64,000 bases of DNA from a virus (Duplodnaviria > Caudoviricetes). The stretch covers positions 1-64,000 of the IMG/VR virus record IMGVR_UViG_2731957753_000001; one strand, written 5' to 3'. Position 1 is the stretch's first letter; every line of letters starts with the position of its first letter. Positions 25,948 through 48,005 of this stretch are shown here, one piece after another. Both the position numbers and the translations under genes were made by a program. The notes below the pieces were generated by a model. The model did no database searches, was not told the origin of the DNA, and worked only from the letters and a program-made list of their open reading frames with translations.

Positions 25948-26010
25948 GAAAGACCCCCGCGTCTGCGCCAACAGACCGGGGGCATGGCCGAACTTTGGAG
26001 GAGTTCGACG
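25948..26010 (+). promoter_or_regulatory. Conserved structured leader, copy A, upstream of an HNH gene
   Basis: GAAAGACCCCCGC-GTCTG-CGCCAA-CAGAC-CGGGGGCATGGCCGA...GGAGGAGTTCGACG-ATG. Confidence 0.7.
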
Positions 26011-26619
26011 ATGACTGATGTTACATGCTCTGTTCCCGCATGCATACGACCGCGGGGTACCCGAGGATACTGCTCAGGCCACTACGACCGGTGGAAGAAA
26101 TACGGGCACCCCGACGCCGCCCGACCACTGAACACCAAAGTCCCCCGCGGGGCATCGCTTCGAGAGCGCCTGATGTGGCGCGTAGACCCCGATCTCAGCC
26201 CTGACGAATGCTGGATCTGGCGCGGAGCGCGAGGCGGCACCAAAAAGCGTACAGGCATCGGATACGGGAAATTCACCGTCAACGGTCGCCAATACGACGC
26301 GCACCGCGTGTCATGGGAGATCCACAACGGCCAGCCCGTGCCACCCGGAATGCAGGTCCTGCACTCGTGCGATAATCCGCTGTGCGTCAACCCCAAGCAC
26401 CTGAGCATCGGCAGCAACCGGGACAACGTCGACGACATGGTCTCCAAGATGCGGCAGACCTACGGCGAGCGAAACCCGCAATCGGTACTCACCGATGAGG
26501 CCGTCCGCGACATACGATCAAGCTCGGCGAGCGACGCCGCACTTGCAGTGAAGTACGGTGTCGGCAAGTCATGCATCGCCGATGCACGTTACGGGCGAAC
26601 CTGGCGGCACATCGCGTAG
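26011..26619 (+). CDS. Free-standing HNH homing endonuclease, antisense inside the late operon
   Basis: CSVPAC...CSGH finger; ECWIWRG...AHRVSW...VLHSCDNPLCVNPKHLSIGSNRDNVDD; C-terminal HTH. Confidence 0.9.
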   Translation: MTDVTCSVPACIRPRGTRGYCSGHYDRWKKYGHPDAARPLNTKVPRGASLRERLMWRVDPDLSPDECWIWRGARGGTKKRTGIGYGKFTVNGRQYDAHRVSWEIHNGQPVPPGMQVLHSCDNPLCVNPKHLSIGSNRDNVDDMVSKMRQTYGERNPQSVLTDEAVRDIRSSSASDAALAVKYGVGKSCIADARYGRTWRHIA

Positions 26620-26626
26620 CAATCGA

Positions 26627-26660
26627 TCCCCGGAGTGGGGCTACACACCCACTTCGGGGA
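26627..26660. terminator. Hairpin between convergent genes
   Basis: TCCCCGGAGTGGG/CCCACTTCGGGGA. Confidence 0.6.
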
Positions 26661-27339
26661 ATCGATCCAAAATTGTCTTCCGGGGCCGCTTCGACAGGTG
26701 ACGCTCAACCATCAGGACCCGTTCCCGCTCGGCGTCGTCGACGGCCGCCAGGTACTCCAGAACCTCGTCAACTGTGTGTAAAGCTGGATTCCAGCCCGGA
26801 TCTTTGACGGGATAATTGGTCACGTACGCACCGTCACGTGACACTGGCCCGGTCTTGAGCTGTTTGCCCTCCCCCGTCACCCCAGCAACGATCTGCCCGT
26901 CCTCCGGCAACGGCGCGTTCGTGTCGAACCCGAGCGCTTCCGCCAACTGCCGCTTCGTATCCTGCGGCAGCGACGCCACGAACTCTTTGATATCGAACTT
27001 CGAGCGGTCGGGAGCATCCGCCGGCACCCACACGCCCGGACTGGTGAGCCAGTGCGGGTCAGTGTTCTTCGGCTGCTGGTACTTGATCTTCCGTTCCGGC
27101 GGGATCACCGAGTCCATCGGCCGCACGCCACAATCCCACTGCCGACGCGAGACCTCTTTCAGGTACTCGATCGGAAACGGAAGCGGGGCCCCCTTCATGC
27201 CGGGCAACCCGGCGAAGGTATGGAGCAGAGCCTCCTCTGGACAATTTGGGTTGGTGTTCTCCAAGGTGGGAAACTCGCCCGGTTTCAACCAGGGCGAGGT
27301 ATCCACTTCGACGGGACGCGAAGACTTCTTCGACATCAA
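26641..27339 (-). CDS. DUF2744-like tail-region protein
   Basis: PNCPEEALL...LPGMKGAPL...KIKYQQP...PGVWVP; position between the minor tail and the lysin. Confidence 0.75.
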   Translation of the reverse strand: MMSKKSSRPVEVDTSPWLKPGEFPTLENTNPNCPEEALLHTFAGLPGMKGAPLPFPIEYLKEVSRRQWDCGVRPMDSVIPPERKIKYQQPKNTDPHWLTSPGVWVPADAPDRSKFDIKEFVASLPQDTKRQLAEALGFDTNAPLPEDGQIVAGVTGEGKQLKTGPVSRDGAYVTNYPVKDPGWNPALHTVDEVLEYLAAVDDAERERVLMVERHLSKRPRKTILDRFPEVGV

Positions 27340-27349
27340 AACTCCTGGA

Positions 27350-29071
27350 CTATTTGCCCTGCACAGCCAACTGCTGCACGAGCGATCCGAGGTCAGCGAT
27401 CATCGCCAACGCACGCTGCCCGCGGTCTTTGTTCTTTTCCTTCTCGCCGATGACGGGCAGCCACTCAGGCGGAGACTCCCGATCCCAAGCAAGCGTGAGT
27501 TCACGGACGCGGTCGACATAGATGGTGTGGTCATCGACGTACAGCACCGTCGGGCCGTTCCCGACGACTGTGGAGCCGATCACCTGGGCGCCGATACGGT
27601 CACCGATGAAGAAATGCCCGCGCCCCTGATCACCGACGAACCACGGCGCCCCATCCCGGATGTTGATTTCGTGGCTGAACCACGATCTCGTGTCGTGCAG
27701 GGCTTTCCGCATCGACAGCAGCATTTCCAGCGTGTACGCCCGGTCGGAGCCGGACGCTAGCACTTCGAATGGGCTCGCCCACCCACCATTTGTTGCGCGG
27801 CCGGCGGATTCCAAGTTGGCCCAGGCGGCGATGGTGTCCCAGTAGAAGATTTGGGCGACGGCGTCCACCGCGCCACCAATGGGCGGTACCACGATTGCCG
27901 CTGCGAGCAAATCGCCCGCAGTCTGGATGGCAGCCGAGATAAGCTCATTCACGAATGGGAAACTGTGTCCACCGGCCACAATTTGTTTCGCGGTGCTCGG
28001 CGTGAACGTGAACTTGGACGATTCGATACCCGTCTCTTCGCCCTCAAGATAGATGACGTACGGGCACGTCTTGTCCGTCAACCGCAGGCCAGGAACGTTG
28101 TACGACGCCGGGGTTTCCGGCGACACAACGTCTTCCTCGATCACATCAAGGAAGTCCTCAGCCCACTGCGCGAACGTGCGTTCCAGCCCAGTGAACGGGT
28201 TACCGCCGTTCGACGTGTCCGTGAAGTACCCGGACTTGTCGACGATGTCCACGACCAGCGCGCCGTTACGCAGGGTTTGGCCTTCGATCGGCTGCTCGTC
28301 ATCATCGGCGATGTAGCGGCGGACCTGGATAGACAGTTGCGCGTCTTCCAGGATGTCCTTCGCCATATCGACCCAGCGTTTAAACCGGGAGTTCGGGACA
28401 GACCAGATCGTGCCCGCAGCCATGTCCTCAGCGAATGTCGTCGGTTTTACAACAACGGACCAGTTGCCCATTCCGGGCGCCGACGAATTCTGGTCCATCG
28501 GGTCATCCGGCAAACCCCACAAGCTAATTTGCTCACGCATAACGTTCAGAAAAAGGGCCGTTTTCAATGCCCAAATCGACGGACCCGCGATGAAGAATAC
28601 GCGCGGGAATTGTACGAAGGCGGGCAAGAACGGCGAGGCCCATGCCAGGTAGTAGTCCAGGACGCCCAGATCGTGGAGAAAGCGGACCACCAATACCCAG
28701 GTGCCGTCTTCTCTTTTTTCAAGAACCTGATCGTGAAGTCTTCCAGACCACCGGGCGCCGTCTTTGTCTACAGTGATGTAGACGTGCAGTTTCTCGCCGC
28801 GCTGTATGCGTGGCGCTACCTGGTATATCCACTTTGCCAACGGGTCATCGAGCGGAATTTCCACCTGGCCGGGGCCGACCTCGTTATCGAGCCATGTGAA
28901 GCTGGCAGAGTATTCCGAGTTCAGGATCCCCTGTAAACGAAAATCGCCATCCCAGAGCCTCATCAAAGGCGGTTCGAGGCGTGCCCTGCGGTCTGCTTCC
29001 TCCGCCGCGTTAGTGGCTTCCCAGATTGCTTCGCATTGCTCCTGCAAACTGAGGGTTGAGAGGTCCGTCAT
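27350..29071 (-). CDS. Minor tail protein (baseplate hub / Tal, Gp37-like)
   Basis: RLWDGDF N-terminus, FFIGDRIG C-terminus; second gene after the tape measure. Confidence 0.88.
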   Translation of the reverse strand: MTDLSTLSLQEQCEAIWEATNAAEEADRRARLEPPLMRLWDGDFRLQGILNSEYSASFTWLDNEVGPGQVEIPLDDPLAKWIYQVAPRIQRGEKLHVYITVDKDGARWSGRLHDQVLEKREDGTWVLVVRFLHDLGVLDYYLAWASPFLPAFVQFPRVFFIAGPSIWALKTALFLNVMREQISLWGLPDDPMDQNSSAPGMGNWSVVVKPTTFAEDMAAGTIWSVPNSRFKRWVDMAKDILEDAQLSIQVRRYIADDDEQPIEGQTLRNGALVVDIVDKSGYFTDTSNGGNPFTGLERTFAQWAEDFLDVIEEDVVSPETPASYNVPGLRLTDKTCPYVIYLEGEETGIESSKFTFTPSTAKQIVAGGHSFPFVNELISAAIQTAGDLLAAAIVVPPIGGAVDAVAQIFYWDTIAAWANLESAGRATNGGWASPFEVLASGSDRAYTLEMLLSMRKALHDTRSWFSHEINIRDGAPWFVGDQGRGHFFIGDRIGAQVIGSTVVGNGPTVLYVDDHTIYVDRVRELTLAWDRESPPEWLPVIGEKEKNKDRGQRALAMIADLGSLVQQLAVQGK

Positions 29072-29101
29072 TCGAAATCAACTCCAAACGAGCGGAACCG
29101 C

Positions 29102-30028
29102 TCAACCATTCAGCCACGGATGAGACCATCGACGCTGGCAATAAACTTCAACCCGGCCACCACCCGCCGGCGCGGCCTCGACTTTCACGGGCAAGTTGGT
29201 TTCGGGGGTCTTCGGGGGCACGCGATGAAGGAACGCTATTCCATTCATCCGGCCAGCAAGGTTCGTGCCGAATAAGTCGCGTACCTGCAACTTGTCTCGG
29301 TACAGGGTGACCCGCGCCCCACCCTCAACATCACCGAGACCAGGCAGAGTGATCTTCCGGTTGGCGTGTTCTCCGCCTGGTATTCGCTGGTGTTTCTTCC
29401 CGACCCACGAATAGTCCGGGAGTGTCCAAACGCCGCGAGTAACGACCCATTGCAGCCACATTGGTTGGTCGCACGGGTTAGATATGGTCACCCAGCCTTC
29501 CGAGGTCCCAGCCGACGAGGTTTCGAAATAGTCGACCGGGGTGTTCTCGTAGGCGTCTTCGAAATAGAGTGGCTGGTCGGCGACGACCGCCATTTTTTCG
29601 AGCGATGACCGGGTTAGATGCGGCGCATGCTCGTATTCGGACGGCACCGTGTCACTCAGCGCCAACCACAGAGAACGTGTCCCTGCGGTCGGCGTGGTGA
29701 TCGACAGTTTCGTGAGTGTCGAGTCCAAATCCCACGGGTCGTTTTCGTAATCCCACATGGAATGCCACTCGTTGTGGAGTGACTGCCATTCCTCGGGGGT
29801 TTCGCCCTTAAGGTGGACACCGAACGTGATGTCACGTTGGTCGTATGATTTCCCTTGGTACGTCGAACCCTTCTGGAACGCCGATGAACGTCGGCGCGTG
29901 ACTACGGGCGCCTCGAATAGGCCGCGTGGATCTGTTGCCAGATACAGCTTTTTCGAGGCTCCTGAGCCGCTGATGACCATGTGTTTGCCATCTTTGAAGA
30001 TTTCGACGCGGGGACCTTCCCGCATCAA
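29102..30028 (-). CDS. Distal tail protein (Dit)
   Basis: First gene after the tape measure; SNPCDQPMWLQW motif. Confidence 0.85.
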   Translation of the reverse strand: MMREGPRVEIFKDGKHMVISGSGASKKLYLATDPRGLFEAPVVTRRRSSAFQKGSTYQGKSYDQRDITFGVHLKGETPEEWQSLHNEWHSMWDYENDPWDLDSTLTKLSITTPTAGTRSLWLALSDTVPSEYEHAPHLTRSSLEKMAVVADQPLYFEDAYENTPVDYFETSSAGTSEGWVTISNPCDQPMWLQWVVTRGVWTLPDYSWVGKKHQRIPGGEHANRKITLPGLGDVEGGARVTLYRDKLQVRDLFGTNLAGRMNGIAFLHRVPPKTPETNLPVKVEAAPAGGGRVEVYCQRRWSHPWLNG

Positions 30029-30043
30029 CAGAGTTCTCCCCTT

Positions 30044-33000
30044 TTAACCGGTGTATGGGATTGCCCGCAGGTCCGCCATCTGGTTCAGTTTCCGGAACGC
30101 GTCAGCATCGTTCTTGACGGTCAGATTGACTGTCATCGAGTTATCGACGCTGCTGATCTGCGACCCGGACGGATTCGACTGGACCACTTGGTTCGCGGCC
30201 CCGACCGCATGCTGTCCAGCCTGGTAATACCCGGACTGGTTGAGCAACGCTTGCGAGTCGACGCCTGGTGCTTGGGCTTTCGCCTTGTTCCATTCGTCGA
30301 ACGTTTTCGCGTACGCAGTGACTTCGGACGGGATCAAATCCCGCGGATCCGGCAGCCCCAACGGCCCCAAGGTGGAGTCGACAAGCGAGTTGAACCCGGT
30401 CGCGAACGCCCCAGACTCGCCGAAGAACCGATCCATGGTCTTCTTCTTCAGCGAACCGACCGTGTCCACACCCGCAACCGGCGGGCCACCCCAAATGTTG
30501 GTGTCCGGGGGTTCGGCGCCACCGTTGGGCGGCTGGTTCGGGTCGAACGGTGCCGGACCCCGCTGCTCCAGCGTTTTCGCCTGCGGCTTTGCGCCACCGT
30601 TGATGGCCTCCAACAGCGGACCCCACTGGCCGGCCGCGGCAGCATTCACGACGAATTCACCGTTGGACAGCAACGCCCGGATCTTGTCTGCGAGCGGACC
30701 ACCAGGACCGTTCACCCAGCCACCGTTGGCGTATCCGTGGCCGTGTCCCCACTCGGTGGTGAGGTCTGAGCCGTAGGTGTCCCGGTAGTAGTTGAGTGCG
30801 GCGACCATGTTCGCCATCGGGTCGGTGCGGTCGTTCGGCAGGCTGGGGTCACGGTAGGCGGCGAAGGTTCCGGGGATCACCTGAAGCAATCCCTGGGCTT
30901 CGTTACCACCACTGTTGACGTCCTGTACCTGCTGAAGAATCGACGGGTTACCGCCGGATTCGGACTTGATCTGCGCCATCATCGCGTTGACTTGGTTCTC
31001 GTCATCCGCGTTGAACCCCGTACGCCGCATGGCCTCTTTCGCGAGGTCACGCCAGCGTTCAACATTCCCGGTGGCCTCGTAATCGACGAGACCACCACCG
31101 GACCCGCCCAGCTTGGACGAGATGAACGAGGTGACAGCGTCGGCCATCTTCCGCGCGAACGCCTTCGGGATCTGCCCGAACTCACCCATACCGGGGAAGT
31201 CAGGGACACGATCCACCAAAGCGTTCAGCGGCTTGCGGACGAGGTTGTCGAGCGCGAAACCACGGCCGGCACCCATCGCGGACCCGAGAGCGTTCTTCAC
31301 CCGGTCGAACAGGCCGGCCTTCTCCTCGTCGGAGAGCTGGGTGAGGAAGTCGTTCGCAGCCCAGTGGACGTGGTCCCTGTGCGCTTCGTTCGTCGCCGAA
31401 CCAAAATCGAACGGCTTGCCTTCATCGAGGTTCGACCACCCGTTGAGCGGCCAGTGAATCAACTCCGCGGACTGCGGATACGTGTCATAGATCCAGCGGG
31501 CAATCTCATCCATCGGCCCCGCAAGGTCGATAGCCTTGCCCTGCATGTGCAGGTCGTAGCCCGAGCCGACATCCACGAAGCGTTGCCCCGAAGTGAGGAT
31601 CGCACCCGGAATCGCAGACGACACCAGATCCCACAAATGCTGCTGAATCGGCTGCAACGGATCCGACGTGGCGACAATGCCGCCGTCCGCATAACCCGGC
31701 AGAGGGCCGTCAGCCTTCGACTGCTTCCCGCCCGTACCGAGCACGCCTTTACGCATGCGGTACATGGCGTCATGGCCGCCAGCCGCAGCAACCTCATCCG
31801 CAGTCCACACATGCTCGCCGGCCGACAACCGGTACAGTCCGGCTTTGTCTTCCTTCGGGCCACCAGGACCACGCACCGGACCACCAGGGCCACCCATCCA
31901 ACGGGCACCGATCGGGGTTGCGGTCGGGTTCTCCTTGCCCATCTGCCCGACAGCCCCGACGTGCCCGAGCGGTTCCCATTTCGGGAGCCCGAGCTTGTCA
32001 GCGACCTTGTTCCAGATATCGCCGAACCCGTTCAGCACATCCACGACGGCATTGATCGGCCCATGGAACTGCGACGGCAGCTTCCCGAGAATCGAACCGA
32101 AATTCGAGACCGCGGCGTCGAAGAACGGGCCCAAGCTGTTGAACCCGTTTTTAAGCTTCTCAAGCGGGCCTTCAGTGCCGAGGATCCCATCGGTGATCTG
32201 ACCGAGGTTCGTGCTGAACAGGCCCCAGAAACCCTCACCGTCAGTGAGGCTGGTGCCCATTTCGCCGATGAACGTGCTGATCTTCGTCTTGATGCTCGGC
32301 AGCGTCTCGTCGCCGAGGACACCGCCGAACTCGGTCGCCGAAGTCAGGACACTCTTGAACCCATTGGCGGCCTTGTTCTTGAAATCAACCCAAGTCTTGG
32401 CGCCCCATGTGCCGACCTTCGCGGACTGTTGCGGAAGCCATTCGTCGGTGAAACTAGTCCAAAGCTCCTTGGCCTCGTTGAACCCGAGCTTGCCGAGGAA
32501 GACGGGAGGGGACGGCGCCAGCAGCCCGCCACCGATGTCTTTAGCCCGGTCCCAACCAGTCTTCTGGGAGCCGTCTTCATTGGTGTCTTCGGTGAACCCT
32601 CCAACGACCTTCGCGAACGGGTTCCCTTCCATCGCCCCGTTGAGCCAGTCGGCCAGTTCGACAGCCTTCGTCAGCAGGGTCGTGATCGAGTTGACGGTGT
32701 CGCGGACGTCTTTGAAGAAGTCCTTGATCTTCTGCTGCCCCTCCTCCGAGGAGAGGAAGTCGTTCCAGCGGTCCAGGGTTTGCGTGATCGAGTCGAGCCA
32801 GCCCTCACCGGTCTCATCGCTGCCGCGGAAGATATTGCGGACCAGGTCGATAAGACGGGTGCCGATGCCCCAGATCTTCCCGAACGCGTCCAGCGACTCC
32901 CGCAAGAAGTCACGGAACTTCTGCTGCCCCTCCGGCGACTCGGCCCACTCCCGGAACTTCTGTGCGAAATCAGCGAACCCACCCGACAGGCCGGGCAGGA

Positions 33001-35068
33001 ACTCGGATCCGACCTGAGACAGAGACAAGAAGCCCTGGAGGACATCGTTGATGCCGTCGATCAGCGGACCGACAGACTTAGTGGTGTTATCGAAGATCAC
33101 GGACAGCTTGCCGCGGGTGGCCTCAGTGTTCAGATCGGCCAAGGCCCGCCGCAAACCCTCATTGATCTGCGTAGCGATCCCACCCAAACCGGTTTTCAGT
33201 GTCGGCAGGTAGGCGTAGGCGAGATCTGACACCGACTGCCCGAGACGATCGAACAGAGCGTCTTGCAGTTCGTTTTTCAGGCCCTTGTATGCGTCTTTGA
33301 CATCAAGGAGCTTCCGCACGAAATCCTGAGCGTTCGGCGACAGCTTCGCCATCGCCTCGTCGAAAGCCTTAGCAGCAGTGCTGCCCTCATTCATGGCTTC
33401 AGTGACCGCGACCTGCGCTTCAGCAAGCGTGGCGTGGGCGTCCGCGAGACGTTCCTGAGCATCAATCTCGCCCTGCGCAGCGTCCGCTACAGCTTCCTTC
33501 GCAGCAACAACCTGGTCGCTGCCTTCGACACCCTTCGTGTTCGCGTCCGCTACCTTGTCGGCGAGCCGCTGGTTGTCAATGAGAAGGTCCGACTGGTCCG
33601 CCAACGCCTGGTTATACGAGTTGACTGCACGAGCGCGGTCGATCGCGTCCGATTCCGGGTCGCTGAACGTCTGCAACATCTCCCGATGCGCTTCCGCTAC
33701 AGCGATCGCGGCAGCCTGCTCTGTGAGCACGGTCCGACCCAATGCCCGGTTGAGGTCGTCGATCTCGTCTTTCGCGTCCTTACGGGCCCTGTTCAGGCCC
33801 TTCTGCGCACGCTCGGACGCCTTCTGCGCTGTGACAACACCACGCTCAGCCGACGCGACACCCTTAACCGCGGACGCGACCTGCTTCTGCGCAGCAGCGA
33901 CAGCCTTACCGCGAGCCTCCATATCGGAGCCTGCGGAATCGGATGCCTTCTTCGCTGCTTCGAACGCGTCATTAACCCCAGACAGGCCGATCTTCACCGC
34001 GGCGAATACGGACACGGCTCCGGCCAGGGCGGCCGGGAACAGCCCGAGCACGCCCGCGGCCTGTGCGAGCTGACCGATCAACGGCACCAGTGACACTGCG
34101 GCAAGAGCTATGAGTCCGACGAGGGCGACATTCACGATGTTGCTGAAGTTGAACATGTTCGCGGCGGCGGAACCGATGGCGCTGACGAGCCCGCGCATGC
34201 CTACGCCTGCGAGCCCAAAGAACCCATTGCGGTCGTTGCGGGCGCCGTCGAGGCGCCGGCGGGCGTTGTGTTCGTCGTCCATCAGGGACAGCACGCGGCC
34301 CTGTGCGTCTGCCTGAGCGTTCCGGGCGCGGGTGAGTGCCTGTGTGGCGGCGAGACGCTGGGAGTCGGTCGCGGACGATCGCGCCATCACTTCGGCGTGC
34401 CGCTGCTCTGCGAGCGCCAACCGGTCCGTAGCAGTCGTCTGCTGGTTTCGGGCCTGCGAAAGGCGAGCCGCGACCGAAGCCACCTCAGCCTCAGCGCGCG
34501 CAACGGATGCCCGGTCGATCTCGATCTGCATGCGGATCGCCCGCACGGGGCGCGTGAAAATACCGCCGGTCAGACGACGTTGGGTTGCGGGACTGAGCAC
34601 AGAGCGCGCGTTCAACCCGTTGACCTGATTCGTCACGGTAGACGCGAGGGACCGCAACGCCATCAACTGTGCGACGGCGGCCGTGGTGTCCACGTTGACA
34701 TTCAGGGCGAGGGGCTGCGCTGCGACCTGCGTCCGGAACGCCTGCATCTGGGAGATCGCGCGTGTCAGGTCGAGGTCGACACCGAGGCGAGCGTTCGGCA
34801 TGTTCGCGGTCGCTGCACGAACTTGGGAGCGGACGCGTGATGCGTCAACAGTGACGCCGACCCTCGCGTTCACTCCCTGCGAGGCGGCGCGGACCATGTT
34901 CCGGAGTTCGGTGCGGAATCGGGGGGCCAACTGGGGGCGGACCTGGACACGGATTGATTCGTTGATCGGCTGCAAGAGCGCGCGGACTTGAGACTTAAAA
35001 CCGGTCGCTAGCTGCGGTTTTAATGAAATTCGAGCGCTGCCGGCATGGAAGGCGGGCCAGTTAGCCAT
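30044..35068 (-). CDS. Tape measure protein with C-terminal peptidase-like and lytic transglycosylase domains
   Basis: 1674 aa, Ala-rich coiled coil; HMQGKAIDL...HRDHVH; QIKSESGGNP...GLLQVIPGTF...DPMANMVAALNY. Confidence 0.95.
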   Translation of the reverse strand: MANWPAFHAGSARISLKPQLATGFKSQVRALLQPINESIRVQVRPQLAPRFRTELRNMVRAASQGVNARVGVTVDASRVRSQVRAATANMPNARLGVDLDLTRAISQMQAFRTQVAAQPLALNVNVDTTAAVAQLMALRSLASTVTNQVNGLNARSVLSPATQRRLTGGIFTRPVRAIRMQIEIDRASVARAEAEVASVAARLSQARNQQTTATDRLALAEQRHAEVMARSSATDSQRLAATQALTRARNAQADAQGRVLSLMDDEHNARRRLDGARNDRNGFFGLAGVGMRGLVSAIGSAAANMFNFSNIVNVALVGLIALAAVSLVPLIGQLAQAAGVLGLFPAALAGAVSVFAAVKIGLSGVNDAFEAAKKASDSAGSDMEARGKAVAAAQKQVASAVKGVASAERGVVTAQKASERAQKGLNRARKDAKDEIDDLNRALGRTVLTEQAAAIAVAEAHREMLQTFSDPESDAIDRARAVNSYNQALADQSDLLIDNQRLADKVADANTKGVEGSDQVVAAKEAVADAAQGEIDAQERLADAHATLAEAQVAVTEAMNEGSTAAKAFDEAMAKLSPNAQDFVRKLLDVKDAYKGLKNELQDALFDRLGQSVSDLAYAYLPTLKTGLGGIATQINEGLRRALADLNTEATRGKLSVIFDNTTKSVGPLIDGINDVLQGFLSLSQVGSEFLPGLSGGFADFAQKFREWAESPEGQQKFRDFLRESLDAFGKIWGIGTRLIDLVRNIFRGSDETGEGWLDSITQTLDRWNDFLSSEEGQQKIKDFFKDVRDTVNSITTLLTKAVELADWLNGAMEGNPFAKVVGGFTEDTNEDGSQKTGWDRAKDIGGGLLAPSPPVFLGKLGFNEAKELWTSFTDEWLPQQSAKVGTWGAKTWVDFKNKAANGFKSVLTSATEFGGVLGDETLPSIKTKISTFIGEMGTSLTDGEGFWGLFSTNLGQITDGILGTEGPLEKLKNGFNSLGPFFDAAVSNFGSILGKLPSQFHGPINAVVDVLNGFGDIWNKVADKLGLPKWEPLGHVGAVGQMGKENPTATPIGARWMGGPGGPVRGPGGPKEDKAGLYRLSAGEHVWTADEVAAAGGHDAMYRMRKGVLGTGGKQSKADGPLPGYADGGIVATSDPLQPIQQHLWDLVSSAIPGAILTSGQRFVDVGSGYDLHMQGKAIDLAGPMDEIARWIYDTYPQSAELIHWPLNGWSNLDEGKPFDFGSATNEAHRDHVHWAANDFLTQLSDEEKAGLFDRVKNALGSAMGAGRGFALDNLVRKPLNALVDRVPDFPGMGEFGQIPKAFARKMADAVTSFISSKLGGSGGGLVDYEATGNVERWRDLAKEAMRRTGFNADDENQVNAMMAQIKSESGGNPSILQQVQDVNSGGNEAQGLLQVIPGTFAAYRDPSLPNDRTDPMANMVAALNYYRDTYGSDLTTEWGHGHGYANGGWVNGPGGPLADKIRALLSNGEFVVNAAAAGQWGPLLEAINGGAKPQAKTLEQRGPAPFDPNQPPNGGAEPPDTNIWGGPPVAGVDTVGSLKKKTMDRFFGESGAFATGFNSLVDSTLGPLGLPDPRDLIPSEVTAYAKTFDEWNKAKAQAPGVDSQALLNQSGYYQAGQHAVGAANQVVQSNPSGSQISSVDNSMTVNLTVKNDADAFRKLNQMADLRAIPYTG

Positions 35069-37422: not shown

Positions 37423-37427
37423 TCACG

Positions 37428-39137: not shown

Positions 39138-39160
39138 AGCAGTCTCCTGGCAGAGAGTTG

Positions 39161-39397: not shown

Positions 39398-39497
39398 TCG
39401 GGGTCTCCCGGCAAAGAATGACCTGGCAGTTTGGGAGAGAGTCGCCCCGTGCGCGGCCAGGAAACACGCACGGGGCGACGAACAGGGGCCTGACGAA

Positions 39498-40412: not shown

Positions 40413-40491
40413 AAGCTGTGTCCTTGCTTTAGGCACGCCCAGAGACCCGCAACCGAAAATTGGTGCGGGTGGCGTGCAGAAGAGAAAAGAG

Positions 40492-40869
40492 TTAGGCGCG
40501 AGGGCGCCGATAAGAGAAGCGGTTCGTAGCGATAAACTCACGCATATCCCGCTGCTGAGGCGACATCGGCATAGCGCCAGTCACTTCCTCAGCCACATCA
40601 ATCAGAAACCCGCCGGGCGCAGTGTTCCCACAGTGTCGAACCCGCTCCTGACCAGCCTTCTTCAAAGCCTTAGAAGCGGCACGAGTCGGACCCACGTACT
40701 CGACATCGACGACAGGGTTATCGAACACCCCATCTTCACGGCCGCCGACACGCTGCACATAGATGTACTCGGCCGGCAGGTCATCGTCGATGAACGTCAC
40801 CACCGGGGCGAGACCGTCGAACAGGGCCTTCAGGACTTCGTCGTACTCCGGATAATCAGGCAGAGACAC
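40492..40869 (-). CDS. Tail terminator protein
   Basis: YIYVQRVGGREDGVFDNPVVDVEY; position. Confidence 0.8.
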   Translation of the reverse strand: MSLPDYPEYDEVLKALFDGLAPVVTFIDDDLPAEYIYVQRVGGREDGVFDNPVVDVEYVGPTRAASKALKKAGQERVRHCGNTAPGGFLIDVAEEVTGAMPMSPQQRDMREFIATNRFSYRRPRA

Positions 40870-40877
40870 GGCGCCTC

Positions 40878-41177
40878 CTAGCCTTCGATATCGCGGATGA
40901 AGTCCCGCATGACGTGTTCGGCCTTGTTGTAGCGGGTGCCGTGCTCACGGAAGCGGGCGTAATGCCCGTGTGCGTAGACGACGCCTTCGATGCGGCCGTC
41001 ATCGCCTGGACCGGACAGTGCTTGAACGCTCGTAGCGTTGTAGCCCGTCCGCCACTTGCTTCGTGCAGCCCACCTGTCGGCGCCCTGTTCAGCGAGTTCG
41101 TGAACGAACCTCTCCAGTTCGGCAGACTCCCGCATGAACGTCCGGTCGAGGTCGAAATCAGCTCCGTCGTACTCCAC
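40878..41177 (-). CDS. Neck/tail completion protein (HK97 gp10-like)
   Basis: YARFREHGTRYNKAEH; position. Confidence 0.75.
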   Translation of the reverse strand: MEYDGADFDLDRTFMRESAELERFVHELAEQGADRWAARSKWRTGYNATSVQALSGPGDDGRIEGVVYAHGHYARFREHGTRYNKAEHVMRDFIRDIEG

Positions 41178-41529
41178 TGGAACCGTCCTTCGCGATCGTG
41201 AACCGCACCCCGGTAGACCAGCCCGTAAACGGATTCGGAGTCTCCCGAACCTGCCCGTCGATCACAAAGATTCGACCGTCAGGCAACTGGATCCGATCCG
41301 ACGAGACGACATCCGAACCATGCGGCGCCGTCACCCGCGCCGTGAGCACGAGCAGTTCCCCGCGCTCGTTGTCCTCGGTGTCAGTCCCCCACTTGAGATC
41401 ACACGGCCCGATCTGATGCGGCGCCCCACCAGCACCGACAGGATCGCCCTGCCAGTCACGATCAGGCGAATCCCGCAGGACAGTCAGCATCGTCCCGCCC
41501 GGATACTGCGGGTGCGCATACGTCACCAC
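41158..41529 (-). CDS. Head-to-tail stopper
   Basis: DRDWQGDP...SSDRIQLPDGRIFVIDGQV. Confidence 0.8.
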   Translation of the reverse strand: MVTYAHPQYPGGTMLTVLRDSPDRDWQGDPVGAGGAPHQIGPCDLKWGTDTEDNERGELLVLTARVTAPHGSDVVSSDRIQLPDGRIFVIDGQVRETPNPFTGWSTGVRFTIAKDGSSGVRRS

Positions 41530-41942
41530 GTGTCCGGCCTTGTCGACGCGAGCCCAGCAGACTTGAGGATCCCGAGAGCGACCGGGGACAGGAAATTCAG
41601 CGACCGTTCGACCTCTTCAGCCGAGACACTGTCCCCATAGGTGACCGAGCCGCCATCCGCGGACTGTGACTGGATGCCGATCTCTCGGCCAGCAGAACCA
41701 GCGGCCGGATTGATACCGGCCTCGATCCACATCGCCGCATGCGCGCACGTAGCGTCACGCATCGCCTCGATCACATCCGGTTCAGTCGGCGAACCAGCAG
41801 GGTCGACCTCATAGTGGTCGCAGGATGTGGCCCGACGCACCAGCGCCGACGCGAACTTGATCGCCCGCAACGCAACCGGTTCTTCCGGTACGTCGACCAG
41901 CCAGCCGTCCATCAAATCATCAGGGGCGGCATACACCAGCAT
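41523..41942 (-). CDS. Head-to-tail adaptor
   Basis: VYAAPDDL...ASALVRRAT...AMRDATCAHA. Confidence 0.8.
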   Translation of the reverse strand: MLVYAAPDDLMDGWLVDVPEEPVALRAIKFASALVRRATSCDHYEVDPAGSPTEPDVIEAMRDATCAHAAMWIEAGINPAAGSAGREIGIQSQSADGGSVTYGDSVSAEEVERSLNFLSPVALGILKSAGLASTRPDTW

Positions 41943-42250
41943 TATTCGCTCCCAGCGACCTTCTTGGCCGGCGCCTTGCGAGGAGCAGCCTTCTTCGCGG
42001 GAGCTTTCTTCGGCTCAGGCGCAGGTTCCGGCTCGACAACCAGCTCAGGCTCAAATGCAGCATCTGCGGCAGGTTCCGGCTCCGCCACCTGGGCGGGCTC
42101 AACGACCGGTTCGACAACAGGCTCCGGCTCCGCCTCAGCGGGCGCGTCGACCTCAACCCAGTACGCCCACTCCAAAAGGTCAGGGCGCGGATCCTCGGAC
42201 TCAACCAGCAAATCCTGGTCACCGCCCAAATACTTATAGAAGTAAGGCAC
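41942..42250 (-). CDS. Small capsid-associated protein with low-complexity Pro/Glu/Ala and Lys tail
   Basis: Follows the major capsid gene. Confidence 0.65.
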   Translation of the reverse strand: MPYFYKYLGGDQDLLVESEDPRPDLLEWAYWVEVDAPAEAEPEPVVEPVVEPAQVAEPEPAADAAFEPELVVEPEPAPEPKKAPAKKAAPRKAPAKKVAGSE

Positions 42251-42319
42251 TACCGTTCTCCAAGTCAGACAGCCGATCGACTGCGCCGCCCACCATTTGG
42301 CAGGCGGCGCAGGTCAAAA

Positions 42320-43237
42320 TCAGGCTTCCAGCGCGCCACGCAGCAGAACACTGCGGTTCGCATCGAGGGTCGACACGCCATACAGAACGCTGAAGCTGAC
42401 AACGTTCTGCATCTTGTTCTGGTCGTACGCGCGGGTCACACGCAGGCTGATGCCCTTGTACGACTCGATCGCATACGCGGTGCCGTCCATCGGCCGCGGC
42501 AGAGCAGCCGAAGTGAACGTGAACGCCGTCTCATGGAACGCCAAACCAACCTCAGTGGTCGGCTGACCGCTCGCGGGATCCGCAGCCGGCTGGACGATGT
42601 TCTGGGTCATGTAAGCGTCGAAACCGAACAGATTCCGGCCGATCGAGCCCTGACGGAGGGCATCGGTAGAACCACTCTGGTCGGCCTGCTTGATCAGAGT
42701 CGAGTTCAGCCAGTTCGCGCGGGCGGTCGGACCAACGACGGCGTGACGCCGCTGAGTCGGAACCTTCGCGATGTTCAGCAGCCGGTCAGCCTCAATCAGG
42801 ACTTCGGGCTTGTTCCACTCGAACCCGGTCGGGGTCACGCCAGCAACGGCGGTGGTCGCCGTCTTGGCGTGGGCGATGATCGCGCGGTCGATGTGCTGAG
42901 CGATTGCCTCAGCAGCAGGCTGGGAGACCTGAGTGTCGAACGACTCCAGCTCAAGCAGGTACTGCTCATCCGGGATCGGCAGCGACACCTCAACGATCTT
43001 GTCCAGCTTCACCGGGACGCTGCCCTCTTCCGCGTCCTGCAACTGGATACCGTCTGCACGGTTAAACAGGTTCGCGGTCAGCACAGCAGGCTTGCGGACG
43101 TTGACGGTGTCACCGATCTTCGCATTGAACTCCTGCGAATGATCCCGATGCACCAGCGGCAGCATGACCAGGTTCTCGTACAGGTTCGCGAGAGTCTGAC
43201 GCGCAATAACGTCAGGGGTCAGAAAATTGTTAGCCAA
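42320..43237 (-). CDS. Major capsid protein (P22 coat-like family)
   Basis: ANNFLTPDVIARQTLANL...KIGDTVNVRKP...FSVLYGVSTLD; AGGAG RBS before a TTG start. Confidence 0.92.
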   Translation of the reverse strand: MANNFLTPDVIARQTLANLYENLVMLPLVHRDHSQEFNAKIGDTVNVRKPAVLTANLFNRADGIQLQDAEEGSVPVKLDKIVEVSLPIPDEQYLLELESFDTQVSQPAAEAIAQHIDRAIIAHAKTATTAVAGVTPTGFEWNKPEVLIEADRLLNIAKVPTQRRHAVVGPTARANWLNSTLIKQADQSGSTDALRQGSIGRNLFGFDAYMTQNIVQPAADPASGQPTTEVGLAFHETAFTFTSAALPRPMDGTAYAIESYKGISLRVTRAYDQNKMQNVVSFSVLYGVSTLDANRSVLLRGALEA

Positions 43238-43251
43238 TTTAGGCTCCTAGA

Positions 43252-44001
43252 TCAGAATCCGTCGCGTTCACGCTGTTCGCGTTTACGCCGCCGGATTTCT
43301 TCGACAGAATCCCGACCGGGCGACGGCTTAGGTGCCGCGTTCCCGCCGGAGAGGTCTCCGCCGCTTCGAGGAGCCGCCGCCTGGGCGGGCGCCTTTTTCA
43401 GCTTCGGATTAGCTTCGACAGCCTCCGCCACAATTTCGGCCACCTGGGCAGCGAAATCGTCGGAATCGGTGTCAAGTTTCTCGACGGCCTTCGAAATTTT
43501 GACCGAATCGAGAATGGAATCAAGGTCACCCTCAGCCGTCTTAGCGGCAGCAGAAAGGGCGTCTTTCCGTGCATAGTTGCGCAGCTTTTCAGCGACCGAG
43601 TCACGCTCGGTTGCCAGCTGCGTCTCCCGCTCCTGCGCTGCACGCAGCAGCTCCGCGGGATCAGGTTCAGCGTCGTCCTCGACGAGCCCCAGAACCTTGC
43701 CGAGCTTCGAAACCAGTTCTTCACTGGCTTTCTTCGCAGCCTCCTGGGCCGCTTTCTCGGCTTTCTCGTTGCCCTTTACGCGGTTCGCGGCGGCTTCTTT
43801 ACGGAGCCGATCCACTTCCTTGTTCAGGCGCGAGATTTCCGGGTCCGCCTCAGTTTTCGAGGCTTCAGTTTCGGCCGGTTTATCGGTTTCGGTGGCCTGT
43901 ACAGCGTCACCGGCTTCCGAATTCTCGACCGAGGTGTCGACAGCTTCGTCGACGGATACATTTTCAGTTGTGGTTTCCTGGTTTGCGGCTTCGTCGGCCA
44001 T
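43252..44001 (-). CDS. Capsid scaffolding protein
   Basis: Acidic N-terminus, LRKEAAANRVK coiled coil, SGGDLSGG C-terminus; ATG at 44001. Confidence 0.85.
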   Translation of the reverse strand: MADEAANQETTTENVSVDEAVDTSVENSEAGDAVQATETDKPAETEASKTEADPEISRLNKEVDRLRKEAAANRVKGNEKAEKAAQEAAKKASEELVSKLGKVLGLVEDDAEPDPAELLRAAQERETQLATERDSVAEKLRNYARKDALSAAAKTAEGDLDSILDSVKISKAVEKLDTDSDDFAAQVAEIVAEAVEANPKLKKAPAQAAAPRSGGDLSGGNAAPKPSPGRDSVEEIRRRKREQRERDGF

Positions 44002-44120
44002 GAATGTCTCCTGGACATGTAGAAACACCCGAATGGCAACCTGGCCTATTCGGGTGCAGATATGACGAAACCCCCGAATAGAATTCGAGGGTCAGAACCC
44101 GCTATAGAAAAGCGGGAAGC

Positions 44121-45089
44121 TTAATCGGATTGCGCCACATACCGGACGCGGTCATTACGGCGCTCACGGCGCGCCAACGCGCGAGCACGGCGGCGCTCAG
44201 CGCGCACAGAATCAGGGACACGCACCGCACGGGGCGGCGCCGGATCATCCGGAGTCCACACGCTGGCTACGTGCCTACAGTTCGGGTGCCAGAGGCCACG
44301 TGCACGAGCCTCAGCAACCGAACCCCACACTGTCACAGTGACAGTCCGGCCCGAGGTCGCTTCTCTCGCAATCGCGCCGACTGTAGCCCCCGAGATTGAG
44401 AGCACCTGACCTTCAAACGGCGAACACAGCGGGCAGCTACCCGCCACATCGGACACCACGATCAGATCGTGCCCTGCCGCGGCAACCTGCGCACAATACG
44501 CATCCACCTCAGCGCGAGTAATCGCCGACCGGACCGCCATCTCCACATACGAGACGAGATCCCAACGCCGGCCACGCGCATCCACAAACCCCGTGATGCC
44601 GCGGCGCGCGAACGCATCTAGCGCGCGCTGCACGACACGGGCACGATCAGTGTTCCCACGGTCACGCTCCGCCCGCACAGCCTCATCAACGACAGCCCGA
44701 TACGCGCCATCCAAGACAGTCGGAACATGCGCATGCGTACGCCGCACCGTATCGACCGCCTCATCAATCAGACGCTCCACCGGACCCTCATCAGCGCGAG
44801 GAGCACCAGGGATGTCATGTCGAGCCGCTGCAACACCGTCGCGCCACGCACCCAACACCGCAGCACGAACTGCCGGCGCCATATCCCGATCAGTCTCGGC
44901 AACATCACGCTCAACATTGCGCCGAAACCGCGGCAACCGAGCCAGCAGCCGCATCGCCCACACCACCGCATGCCCGACACCCGGCGCCACCGCCATAGCA
45001 AGACGCTCCAGCAGGCGACGCTCCAAGCGCCGATACAAGCGGGTGACCGGGCCGATACGACGATCACCGAAGGACGGAGTAAGAGGCAT
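44121..45089 (-). CDS. Minor capsid / MuF-like head morphogenesis protein
   Basis: GITGFVDARGRRWDLVSYVEMAVRS, CPLCSPFEGQV, HPNCRH. Confidence 0.88.
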   Translation of the reverse strand: MPLTPSFGDRRIGPVTRLYRRLERRLLERLAMAVAPGVGHAVVWAMRLLARLPRFRRNVERDVAETDRDMAPAVRAAVLGAWRDGVAAARHDIPGAPRADEGPVERLIDEAVDTVRRTHAHVPTVLDGAYRAVVDEAVRAERDRGNTDRARVVQRALDAFARRGITGFVDARGRRWDLVSYVEMAVRSAITRAEVDAYCAQVAAAGHDLIVVSDVAGSCPLCSPFEGQVLSISGATVGAIAREATSGRTVTVTVWGSVAEARARGLWHPNCRHVASVWTPDDPAPPRAVRVPDSVRAERRRARALARRERRNDRVRYVAQSD

Positions 45090-46702
45090 CAGGCCGCCTC
45101 CGCAACCTCAACGTCAGGCTCGACCTCGTCCTGGAAGTCGTTGCGCGGTTCATCCTCGGCGGACTCGAACTCACCGCCGTCGGGGTCCGGGACCGTCAGC
45201 GCGACCTCATCGAGAATCCGCGCCACTTCCTCTTCGACCTCGTCGTTCGACCAGTTCGGGTTGAACATGCGCACCGCGGTTTCGGTACTGATCGCCTGCG
45301 CAATTTTCAGGTTGCTGATGGCAGTCGACAACGCGACCGGATCCTGATCCACACGCACCGGGAAGTGCAGCTCTGGGGCTTCCTTCAACCCGAAATCCGG
45401 ACCGCCGAAGACCTTGTAGTCTAGACGGAGTGCCGCGAGTCCGAATGGCCGGAGTTCAGCCTGGACATATAGCAGTTTCCGGTTCCGGGTCTGATTCGAC
45501 TTGTCCTTACGCGCAGACACCTCGGTAGCCGTCATCGACACCGAATCAGCGTCATCGAAATCCGCAGCCGAATAGCCCGCCCCCCGCAGGATCTGCTTCA
45601 GCAAGTCCTGGCAGGTCTTCGCATGCTCCTCAACCCGAATACTGAACTGCTGCGCCTGCACCAGTTGGTTCGGGCCGTCCTCCGGCAGCATCTGATTACC
45701 AGGAACCGGAGTGAAAATCTCTTGCTCACGATCGAACGAAGACCCCATACCGGGGCCCTTGTCCTCCAGAGCTTCCTGCGCGACGAACAACCGGGCCTTC
45801 CCCAGGTCCAGGTCACGCATCCAGGACGACCACGCTTCATCAAGCGCATCGAACAAGGGCTCCAAACCCTCAAAATCCGAGCGTCCCAACGGCGACAAAC
45901 CTGGAGTGTTACGCCACCTGCGAGTAGGGCGAACGTTCGGGATGTAGCAGGCCGTCAACTCGTCGATACCGGTCGGGATCGACGACTCCTCATCCACCAG
46001 CTCCGCGGCCCAGAGGGTTTCGTCCATCGCGTCCAGAGGCATCCGCCGGCCGATCGCGCCATCATCCCCGCAATACAGGGCATGCTCAATCCGGCCTGGC
46101 TCATGATGCTCCAAATGCCGCCACGTGCCGAGCTTGTCTTTCCCGATGATCCGCCAGAACGTGACACCCGCAAGTTTCCCGTACCGCCATTGCGGCACGG
46201 CAGCGTCCGGGGCTACCGCGCCGATCATGACCTTTTTCGCGACAGATTCGTCCCACCAGAGCCGCAAGTAGGTTCCGCCCAATGCGGCGGCCCCCTCAGC
46301 GGCTTCCAGAAGGGTAGCGAGGGTGTCAGCGCCATCCAGGATGGTGTTCACGCGATCCTGCGCACCCTTTACGTCTGTGGCCGTCTCCTCGGTGCACAGC
46401 CAAGTCGGAGGCTGCCCAAACAGCAGATCCGCCGACATGGTCGCCAAATCGGCAGCTACAGGGATGTGAAGACGCTTCGTGTCGTTGAAAACAGGACGCC
46501 CCCACCAGAATCGACTGAGTGCGCCCCGCACCCCGCCTAAAAGTTGACTTGGGCGCACAGGCGCGGAGGGGACGGCCCGGCTGTAGATCTCTGCCAGATC
46601 GTCAGAATTCCCACTCCACCACGCGGTGTACTCCCCGTACATATCGGCAGCCAGGTCATGAGGCTTTGGGGGCCACTCGCCAGAATAATCGGGCATCGGC
46701 AC
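45089..46702 (-). CDS. Portal protein (SPP1/A118-like)
   Basis: YIPNVRP...LGRSDFEGLEPLFDALDEAWSSWMRDLDLGKARLFV. Confidence 0.92.
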   Translation of the reverse strand: MPMPDYSGEWPPKPHDLAADMYGEYTAWWSGNSDDLAEIYSRAVPSAPVRPSQLLGGVRGALSRFWWGRPVFNDTKRLHIPVAADLATMSADLLFGQPPTWLCTEETATDVKGAQDRVNTILDGADTLATLLEAAEGAAALGGTYLRLWWDESVAKKVMIGAVAPDAAVPQWRYGKLAGVTFWRIIGKDKLGTWRHLEHHEPGRIEHALYCGDDGAIGRRMPLDAMDETLWAAELVDEESSIPTGIDELTACYIPNVRPTRRWRNTPGLSPLGRSDFEGLEPLFDALDEAWSSWMRDLDLGKARLFVAQEALEDKGPGMGSSFDREQEIFTPVPGNQMLPEDGPNQLVQAQQFSIRVEEHAKTCQDLLKQILRGAGYSAADFDDADSVSMTATEVSARKDKSNQTRNRKLLYVQAELRPFGLAALRLDYKVFGGPDFGLKEAPELHFPVRVDQDPVALSTAISNLKIAQAISTETAVRMFNPNWSNDEVEEEVARILDEVALTVPDPDGGEFESAEDEPRNDFQDEVEPDVEVAEAA

Positions 46703-46719
46703 TGGTGGCCTCCTACAAG

Positions 46720-47943
46720 TTATGGGCGACTAGGCGACGCCCTTCGCATATCGGCGAAGTACGGCCATTTGTCAGATTTGGAAGAGTTGCAGGGTTGGCA
46801 TATCGGGCGCAGATTCGCTGGCATATGCGGGCCGCCCTTGTTCAGCGGCTTCACGTGGTCGGTCGCGGTCGCTTCACCACGGCAAACCCAGCAACGGTTA
46901 CCGAAATACTCCCACCGAGCGGTTACCGATTCAGGGCCGAACGGAATGATCGTGGCATTCTTCTTTTTCGCCTCGTACGCCTGACCGTATGCGCGCCACC
47001 GGTCCCGGTTTTCAGCATTCCAGCGCGCGGATGCAAGCGCTGCGGCTTTCGGTTTGCAGTCCTTGCAGTATGTTGCGCCGGGTGTTGTGGCGCTGAATGT
47101 CGTGGCACACATAGCGCATGGAATGCAGCGCGGCGGAGGGCCCGCAACATCGCCGTAGCGGTAATGCCGGTGCGCGTGGCGGCCGCAGTATCCCAGACTG
47201 CCAAGTCTCCCAATTACGTTCTCGCAGCCACTGACAGAGCACGGCGTTGCACGGTCCAGGACCGGCGGCTCCCGCAGTGGATCGCCGAAATGCTTCCAAC
47301 GCCAGTGATGGCGGGAGCACATCCCCAGCTTCTCGACTGGGTTTCCGCACTCGTCGACCGAACATCTGCGCTTCGCGCGGCATTCTTTACAGAGATTTTG
47401 GGCGCGGCCCCGGTCCCGCCGCCAGGTCATGCCGCAATCCTCGCAAGTTGAGGTAGCGAATTTTAGTGGGTCACCGAATTGCCTGAACGCCCAATAGTGA
47501 GATGGGCACCAGCCGCGGCTTCCCTTTTCCCCAACGAGGTTCTTGCATCCCTCGATTGCGCAGGGCTGGTCCTTGACGTATACGGGATCGTCCGTAGTGC
47601 CTGTCGCCAGCAGTCGCGCATAATGTGTCCCGCAGAGACTACGGGCGCTGACCGCCTTCGCGCAGCCTTCAACCTTGCACGCAACACCACGCCGCTCCCT
47701 AACCCGGGGAGCTAGGTCTTTTCCTCGATACCAGCGCTGATAATGCGGTGAGCAGTACCCGCGCCGGAGGTTCGGCCGTCCGCAGCCCTCCACCGTGCAT
47801 TCACCGGAGCGTTCGACTTTAGGGAGCAAGGCCAGTTCGCCAGTGCGGCGAGCTATTGCATAGTGAGTGCCGCAGTATCCACGGGCACGAAGGGGCTTCT
47901 CGCAGTCCACGGCCGTGCAGACACGTGGTGTATCCTTGGAAAT
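46720..47943 (-). CDS. HNH endonuclease with six tandem C3H zinc fingers and two C4 fingers (probable ATT start, 407 aa)
   Basis: Repeats CxxxxC-x9-12-CxxH; C-terminal CWVC...DHVKPLNKGGPHMPANLRPICQPCN; ATT start inferred from AGGAG spacing and completion of the first finger. Confidence 0.85.
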   Translation of the reverse strand: MSKDTPRVCTAVDCEKPLRARGYCGTHYAIARRTGELALLPKVERSGECTVEGCGRPNLRRGYCSPHYQRWYRGKDLAPRVRERRGVACKVEGCAKAVSARSLCGTHYARLLATGTTDDPVYVKDQPCAIEGCKNLVGEKGSRGWCPSHYWAFRQFGDPLKFATSTCEDCGMTWRRDRGRAQNLCKECRAKRRCSVDECGNPVEKLGMCSRHHWRWKHFGDPLREPPVLDRATPCSVSGCENVIGRLGSLGYCGRHAHRHYRYGDVAGPPPRCIPCAMCATTFSATTPGATYCKDCKPKAAALASARWNAENRDRWRAYGQAYEAKKKNATIIPFGPESVTARWEYFGNRCWVCRGEATATDHVKPLNKGGPHMPANLRPICQPCNSSKSDKWPYFADMRRASPSRP

Positions 47944-48005
47944 TGTCGACTCCTACTAGTCGGCCATGCCCCGGGAGTGTTAGCGCACTCGCCGGGGTCT
48001 TTTCT
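47944..48005 (-). promoter_or_regulatory. Conserved structured leader, copy B
   Basis: GAAAAGACCCCGGC-GAGTG-CGCTAA-CACTC-CCGGGGCATGGCCGA-CTAGTAGGAGTCGACA-ATT. Confidence 0.7.

Follow-up and report, generated by a model that had tools for sequence, protein, structure and literature searches.

A candidate ~95-base control cassette at the head of homing-type nuclease genes in actinobacterial phages

Two genes for HNH-type endonucleases, here called HNH-A and HNH-B, lie on opposite strands of a 64,000-nucleotide (nt) stretch of viral DNA (positions 1 to 64,000 of IMG/VR record IMGVR_UViG_2731957753_000001; hereafter the window), a prophage in an actinobacterial genome (~62% GC; genome size 7.44 Mb). 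Each gene is headed by a copy of the same short element, copy A at 25942-26028 on the plus strand and copy B at 48009-47926 on the minus strand (Table 1). Together the copies make up the second-longest inverted repeat that a repeat scan detects in the window (I2; 43 nt, 84%). A preliminary description of this DNA had listed the parts of the element, and all of them are found where it had placed them: an A-run, an outer stem CCCCSG/CSGGGG, an inner stem that reads GTCTG/CAGAC in copy A and GAGTG/CACTC in copy B, a loop CGC(C/T)AA, and then GCATGGCCGA, a Shine-Dalgarno (SD) sequence and TCGAC. ViennaRNA folds each copy into two hairpins (z = -3.6 for A and -3.0 for B), namely H1, which comprises the outer and inner stems, and H2, which encompasses the SD and the start codon. 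Scored with a covariance model of the family (90 members), copy A reaches 79.4 bits and copy B 74.7 bits, the next match in the window having 11.7. Neither BLAST nor the model located a true copy beyond A and B in the 7.44-Mb genome; weak matches on C17, C4 and C16 all fall inside coding regions and were set aside as chance.

The same element recurs in isolated phages. BLAST searches with the 70-nt leaders place it before HNH, “endonuclease VII” or GIY-YIG genes in the Gordonia phages Malisha, Squiddly, Asapag, Spooky and Faith5x5, and further carriers are Mycobacterium phage LilSpotty, Microbacterium phages Footloose and vB_MoxS-R1, and Rhodococcus phage REQ2, with one to three copies per isolated phage. 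Using a search pattern that fixed only the H1 outer stem and TGRYCG, at least 120 IMG/VR contigs were matched, approximately 100 of which also display all of the unconstrained features. Model R1 recognizes 84 members among the first 100 loci from IMG/VR, versus only about five among the first 100 loci from a pattern scan of bacterial genomes, and so the cassette is phage- or prophage-borne. Three of those five are from Streptomyces, and the model judged the remaining bacterial matches to be mostly chance occurrences in GC-rich genomes. In a sample of the host family, 15 of 150 other genomes, belonging to 13 of 34 genera, carry one or two copies each, and none of eight congeners has the cassette. 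Taken as a family, with more than 100 members in IMG/VR, the element has the appearance of a widespread control cassette of ~95 bases that heads selfish nuclease genes in actinobacterial phages.

No match to a described RNA family was obtained. At the gathering score, Rfam 15 reports only a tRNA-Met and a borderline abiF in the window, both elsewhere than the element, and at E<=10 it returns nothing for either locus on either strand. The suggestion that the leader might be C4-like is thus not borne out, since neither a c4 family nor any other Rfam family, HEARO included, was matched even at this permissive threshold. Literature searches with literal motif strings and keywords likewise found no description of the element. 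The gp36 leader of the cluster A mycobacteriophages Kalpine and Trixie (loci L018 and L019) was considered and rejected as a member, because it scores 17 bits and is devoid of GCRTGRCCGA and of the internal box described below. It does contain an H1-like hairpin with the same CGCCAA loop, followed by a hairpin with the SD in its loop, and may be a distant or convergent relative.

Both hairpins covary strongly in a MAFFT alignment of 90 sequences (A3), as the preliminary description would have it. Under the two-hairpin model, 92.2% of cells are paired compared with 79.5% in shuffled alignments and at most 47% when the partners are slid, and there are 252 double-sided changes compared with 71 in shuffles, a number that none of 500 shuffles reaches. 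Position pair 17-40, in a column left free by the search pattern or outside it, is GC in 48 members and CG in 39; pairs 22-36, 23-35, 54-69 and 55-68 each occur as three to four pair types; and pair R49-Y75, whose Y75 lies outside the search pattern, is GC in 75 members and AU in 15, with no mispairs. RNAalifold independently arrives at nearly the same structure.

The question of which strand folds can be addressed through wobble pairs, because a G.U pair on one strand reads as C.A on the other. Among non-canonical pairs, those that form G.U on the antisense strand only outnumber those that do so on the sense strand only by 33:1 in H1 and by 122:6 in the core of H2, where 88 of the 122 represent a single conserved C.A (in 88 of 90 members) that becomes G.U when read antisense. 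When variable pairs alone are counted, the ratio is 66:7, against a composition-based expectation of 0.59 (p=4e-9; 13 distinct inner stems). In addition, 87 of 90 members have a lower minimum free energy when folded antisense (-31.0, against -25.8 for sense), and RNAalifold gives a consensus energy of -33.2 kcal/mol antisense and -20.6 kcal/mol sense. The antisense RNAs predicted for copies A and B fold at -32.7 and -31.9 kcal/mol, respectively, with z = -4.0 each. On the mRNA, H2 is weak: its -7.6 kcal/mol compares with -5.9 in shuffles, the SD lies mostly in the loop (probability of being unpaired, 0.56), and the start codon (0.42) is partly paired with the conserved CRT. Because the fold fits the opposite strand better, the element resembles a cis-antisense RNA gene more than a simple mRNA leader. 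The proposal of an RNA control element, in which an antisense target had been one of several options, is therefore upheld insofar as the element is conserved, covarying and portable and travels with nuclease genes, but not in its simplest form as an mRNA leader.

Two promoter-like boxes and a U-rich tail are arranged around these hairpins. Within the open reading frame (ORF), positions A+8, T+12 and A+13 are nearly invariant; they correspond to codon positions 2, 3 and 1 of codons 3-5, and so selection on the protein cannot explain them. Read antisense, they spell TANNNT, the actinobacterial -10 consensus, which is present in 87 of 90 members and at a single fixed offset from H2 in 76. In three loci with displaced starts (L014, L071 and L073), the box keeps its distance to H2 and not to the start codon. 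In 60 of 80 members, compared with 15.7 in shuffles, H1 is preceded at a distance of 5-30 nt by a sense TANNNT, which takes the form TAGAAT 23 times. Thus, many cassettes are bounded by two convergent boxes approximately 95 bp apart. On the antisense strand, H1 (there H1′) is followed by a mean of 4.3 U in the first 9 nt (1.49 in control windows), and at least four U of nine are found in 79% of members and in 4.4% of control windows. The sense H1, by contrast, runs into GCRTGRCCGA and has no U tract.

The genes that follow the cassette are predominantly of homing type. Pfam assigns, among 85 distinct downstream ORFs, 16 to HNH, 12 to HNH_3, 10 to Endonuclease_7 and one to LAGLIDADG_3, and about eight are of GIY-YIG type, as judged in part from overlapping family matches (GIY-YIG 2, T5orf172 3, MUG113 3). 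Fifty of the ORFs form a single BLAST-linked HNH/EndoVII/finger cluster, in agreement with PHROGs. Approximately 25 are small or have no known function, one ORF is similar to a superinfection-exclusion protein, and the prophage copies in related genomes precede HNH, T5orf172 and HTH_36 proteins and ORFs of 63-67 amino acids (aa). The cassette is therefore tied strongly, but not exclusively, to homing-type nucleases of unrelated folds. Small ORF families behind the cassette often contain cysteines and lack Pfam or PHROG matches (Table 1); the idea that a nuclease gene might come after these short ORFs was not supported, as none does.

Comparisons among isolated phages indicate that the cassette travels with its gene. 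Malisha and Squiddly contain an insert of ~735 bp between the major tail and tail-assembly-chaperone genes that is missing in Asapag and more than 20 relatives. Its left end lies ~42 nt upstream of H1, and hence it includes the sense promoter box; its right end coincides with the stop codon of the nuclease. This indel spans all three and thus shows that promoter, leader and ORF travel as a single unit. Both hallmarks of a free-standing homing-endonuclease cassette are found here, namely presence or absence between conserved neighbors and an ORF of a homing family. At this same site (L009 versus L010, about 2440-3230), the promoter and leader of Malisha and Squiddly are 100% identical to codon 3, the bodies of their EndoVII ORFs are strongly diverged, and the 3′ ends are similar again, which suggests allele swapping anchored in the cassette. 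For copies A and B themselves, a search among isolated phages for a close relative of this prophage, to serve for such a comparison, found none.

From these computational observations, we infer that an antisense RNA with the ends given in Table 1 is produced and represses the nuclease. An IS200-like cis-antisense RNA of ~67 nt that covers the SD and start codon, in combination with a weakly occluding mRNA hairpin, is probable, albeit with modest confidence. The cassette would constitute the ~95-bp head of a mobile free-standing nuclease gene, situated between two convergent -10-type boxes. The outer box (TAGAAT in copy A) would direct nuclease mRNA synthesis from a few bases before H1, and the inner, antisense TANNNT in codons 3-5 would direct synthesis of the antisense RNA from about the start codon. 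This RNA is predicted to fold into H2′, which displays an anti-SD CUCC in its loop, and the GC-rich H1′, which together with the U-rich tail would serve as a terminator. Perfectly complementary to the whole 5′ leader, it could pair with the mRNA, probably loop-to-loop at the SD first, to block ribosome binding and/or trigger cleavage, while the weak mRNA H2 would also partly occlude the spacer and start codon. In this way, a nuclease with the potential to do harm would be kept at a low and buffered level, irrespective of whether its mRNA arises from the cassette's own promoter or by read-through from phage operons.

The closest parallel is IS200, in which a ~70-90-nt cis-antisense RNA, art200, lies opposite the 5′ untranslated region of tnpA and covers its SD and start codon, and a hairpin in that region acts independently (PMC4513863). 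As with art200, and with RNA-OUT/RNA-IN of IS10, the antisense promoter would face outward from a site close to or within the beginning of the ORF, and an mRNA hairpin would also occlude the ribosome site; by analogy, the mRNA fold probably contributes here too. The antisense TANNNT that faces the leader near the 5′ end of the ORF matches these systems at the level of motif, and the structured antisense RNA with its terminator-like U tail does so at the level of prediction. The cassette differs from art200 in that there is no sequence or Rfam relationship, the cargo is an actinophage homing-type nuclease or accessory ORF rather than a transposase, and the antisense RNA is a predicted one. A precedent from a phage is cfrI of cyanophage S-PM2, an expressed antisense RNA that overlaps the homing-endonuclease gene F-CphI (Millard et al. 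2010, cited in PMC5931967). It too is an antisense RNA at a free-standing phage homing-endonuclease gene, but it is a single locus linking psbA and F-CphI and not a portable, conserved cassette before many unrelated nuclease genes.

The type I toxin-antitoxin pair SymE/SymR has a similar layout, with an antisense promoter just inside the toxin ORF and an RNA that covers the toxin SD and start codon. These are chromosomal, SOS-linked modules of enterobacteria, and we know of no homology between them and the cassette. To our knowledge, the actinobacterial hosts lack Hfq, which further sets the cassette apart from art200.

Conceivably, the cassette could act without any antisense RNA, solely as the leader of the nuclease mRNA, with H1 as a 5′-terminal stabilizing or insulating hairpin and H2 as a translational attenuator over the SD, spacer and start codon. 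In T-even phages, homing-endonuclease genes (I-TevI/II/III, segB, Aeh1 mobE) possess stable hairpins that sequester the ribosome-binding site and limit translation; in T4, long early transcripts are the target of a very stable hairpin, and it is bypassed through a late promoter of the same sense that lies within it and gives rise to transcripts devoid of the 5′ arm (PMC2988022). The cassette likewise provides a homing-endonuclease gene with its own conserved RNA structure at the ribosome site, there is a promoter-like box upstream of H1, and H2 encloses the SD and start codon, the latter being paired with CRTG by RNAalifold. Moreover, 84 sense-only G.U pairs occur at sites where CRT could pair with the start codon, and so the mRNA strand is probably structured too. 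However, H2 here is hardly more stable than shuffled sequence and holds the SD mostly in its loop, the wobble asymmetry and fold energies favor the other strand, and the frame-independent A...TA in the ORF and the purine tract before H1 would be left unexplained. The sole conserved internal box is antisense and the sense box is upstream of both hairpins, in contrast to the same-sense internal late promoter of T4. A leader acting by itself is hence considered unlikely, although such a fold can coexist with an antisense RNA, by analogy with IS200.

A still less probable alternative is a module that works at the level of DNA or transcription, a promoter plus terminator that insulates the inserted gene and offers a recombination anchor for ORF swapping, with no regulatory RNA. 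The model for this would be the PeSLs of T4-type phages, short conserved cassettes in which a sigma-70-type promoter is followed by a stem-loop that terminates same-sense transcription. They occur in several copies per genome on the flanks of accessory ORFs, whose shuffling they mediate, and play no part at the ribosome site (PMC2839356). The identical leader before diverged EndoVII ORFs at one site in Malisha and Squiddly, the presence of one to three copies per phage genome and the predicted capacity of H1′ and its U tail to stop antisense read-through are all in keeping with a modular element of this kind. Yet the cassette, unlike a PeSL, extends over the SD and start codon through the first 13 nt of the ORF and also contains a convergent promoter box. 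In this reading, the SD/anti-SD placement and the internal -10 box would be without a role. Instead of blocks of identity, the family shows position-specific conservation and compensatory changes in each of the two stems, which points to a selected, folded transcript. Nor is there a stem-loop that would terminate same-sense transcription, since the sense H1 lacks a U tract and thus offers no insulator in the direction of the gene itself.

It is most improbable that the cassette is an operator, as RNA or DNA, for a protein, be it the zinc fingers of the nuclease itself, as the preliminary description had envisaged, or a host or phage RNA-binding protein that recognizes the invariant junction CSGGGG-CRTG-RCCGA. 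The sequence of the proximal stems and linker is invariant, unlike that of the distal stems, and I-TevI represses itself at an operator (PMC2988022), but the invariance is in part imposed by the search pattern and no candidate for the binding protein accompanies the cassette. The fingers of the nucleases themselves are unlikely to recognize it, since it also precedes GIY-YIG/T5orf172, LAGLIDADG and HTH proteins and small ORFs, which have no fingers and are unrelated in fold.

The antisense RNA proposed above must also be set against several observations that weigh against it, among them the sense-only G.U pairs at the start codon already mentioned. Most members were collected with a pattern that fixes the H1 outer stem, and since family members are related, the counts overstate how many independent events there were. 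The TANNNT motif is short, and the U-rich tails, with consensus UCUUU, are imperfect and in some members (e.g., L047) weak. Scans for E. coli-type promoters and terminators called neither the boxes nor H1, although a scan that needs two hexamers or at least five T has no bearing on actinobacterial promoters that consist of a -10 element only. Copy B is without a clear sense promoter box of its own and probably relies on operon read-through for sense transcription. Finally, ~30% of cassettes precede ORFs that do not encode nucleases, and therefore restraint of a nuclease cannot be the whole story.

The two nuclease genes of the window differ in setting as well as in product. HNH-A is an antisense insertion that separates the endolysin gene from a minor tail gene, and HNH-B is flanked by an Mre11-like exonuclease gene and the portal gene. 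The proteins had been described as unrelated apart from a shared first finger, and this holds for their catalytic domains (HNH_3 and the classical HNH domain, respectively); both, however, are finger proteins, with one Cys3His finger in HNH-A and about seven in HNH-B. In copy B, the family start position is occupied by ATT (47943-47941), the start codon being ATG or GTG in all other family members. Reading from this ATT, which lies in the frame of ORF 46720-47910, recovers the first Cys of the first finger, a residue that would be removed by starting at GTG 47910, the start chosen by the ORF finder and the next canonical one; GTG 47910 is thus probably not the true start of HNH-B. The ATT could be either a rare start that damps translation further or a start-codon mutant. 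An alternative start at the ATG within GCATGGCC was rejected, because copy A alone has it in frame, a stop following after 3-4 codons in copy B and Malisha. A third gene of HNH_3 type, related to HNH-A but without a leader cassette, lies at ~15228-15700 on the minus strand, and shares with HNH-A a 52-nt inverted repeat (I1; 15418-15469 with 26351-26402). It abuts an upstream gene (15693-16433) and is split across two reading frames, and is thus frameshifted or a pseudogene.

Starts are also misplaced in published annotations. In Malisha, Spooky and LilSpotty, the annotated HNH coding sequences begin upstream of or within the leader and thus translate the cassette, and the family alignment puts the true starts ~70-160 nt further downstream (Table 1).

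Table 1. Features of the two cassette copies, their surroundings and related loci (window positions unless a locus is named)
Feature	Coordinates	Strand	Description
Copy A sense -10-like hexamer TAGAAT	25929..25934	+	19 nt upstream of H1; read from sequence
Copy A sense purine-rich tract	25942..25953		antisense U-rich tail (UCUUUCUAUUGA) after H1′
Copy A hairpin H1/H1′	25954..25982		outer stem 6 bp, bulged C, inner stem 5 bp, loop 6 nt; from folds and covariation
Copy A linker CATGG and hairpin H2	25983..26013	+	SD GGAGGAG 25997-26003, TCGAC, ATG 26011-26013
Copy A antisense -10 hexamer TAACAT	26018..26023	-	reverse complement of sense +8..+13
Predicted cis-antisense RNA A, ~67 nt	25945..26012	-	H2′ (anti-SD CCUCC in loop), H1′, U-tail; predicted ends
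Copy B hairpin H1/H1′	47969..47997		inner stem GAGTG/CACTC, loop CGCTAA; from folds
Copy B linker and H2	47941..47968	-	SD AGGAG 47954-47950, TCGAC, ATT 47943-47941 at family start position
Copy B antisense -10 hexamer TATCCT	47931..47936	+	reverse complement of AGGATA
Predicted cis-antisense RNA B, ~67 nt	47942..48009	+	ends in UCUUUUCUGUUG; predicted ends
HNH-A gene	26011..26619	+	202 aa; one Cys3His finger and HNH_3 domain
HNH-B gene	46720..47943	-	407 aa if read from ATT; ~seven Cys3His fingers and classical HNH domain (PF01844)
Portal	45089-46702	-	morphogenesis genes
Minor head protein	44121-45089	-	
Tape-measure-sized ORF	30044-35068	-	1674 aa; name from size and position only
Minor tail proteins	27350-29071 and 26641-27339	-	
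Endolysin	25085-25903	-	
Malisha gp34	L269 1079-1648		mis-called start
Spooky gp31	L270 1022-1600		mis-called start
LilSpotty gp83	L012 1902-2609		mis-called start
Small ORFs behind cassette, 74-83 aa	L084, L087, L023, L100, L102, L130, L139		
Small ORFs behind cassette, 65-67 aa	L021, L046, L132		
Small ORFs behind cassette, 67 aa	L275, L279		

Further features of the window stand apart from the two cassettes. A 29-nt direct repeat ending in GTCAAACCACGAATT occurs in five copies between prophage genes (3282-3310, 4137-4165, 49467-49495, 56224-56252 and 60613-60641) and may be a phage promoter or operator motif. The borderline abiF match (37.7 bits, gathering score 37) and the tRNA-Met gene directly beside it lie within the phage region, at 54725-54761 and 54769-54844 on the minus strand, and repeats that resemble ATTACCAATCNGATT and show internal dyad symmetry form a short array at 9883-10009 (D2 and I7 in the repeat scan).

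Overall, the element appears to be a new and abundant RNA-level control cassette, with hundreds of copies distributed over phages and prophages of Gordonia, Mycobacterium, Microbacterium, Rhodococcus and Streptomyces and preceding nucleases of at least three unrelated folds, and it is routinely swallowed by mis-called starts in phage annotations. It bears on the question of how free-standing homing endonucleases are restrained outside T4. A wider and quite tentative idea, on the doubtful side, is that, in phage groups unrelated to one another, free-standing homing endonucleases and certain further selfish accessory genes each carry a portable antisense “governor” resembling a type I toxin-antitoxin system. 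The variable distal stems and loops would then act as specificity codes, such that copies A and B are controlled separately, and a resident antisense RNA could silence the same cassette on a co-infecting phage, amounting to a kind of multicopy inhibition or immunity to homing. Should the antisense RNA exist, it would define a new family of RNAs and be the first portable governor of the antisense type to be described for actinophage homing endonucleases. The cassette would then also supply an annotation rule for true starts, for instance in SEA-PHAGES genomes, and a compact regulatory part, comprising promoter, leader and antisense RNA, for the genetics of mycobacteria and other actinobacteria.

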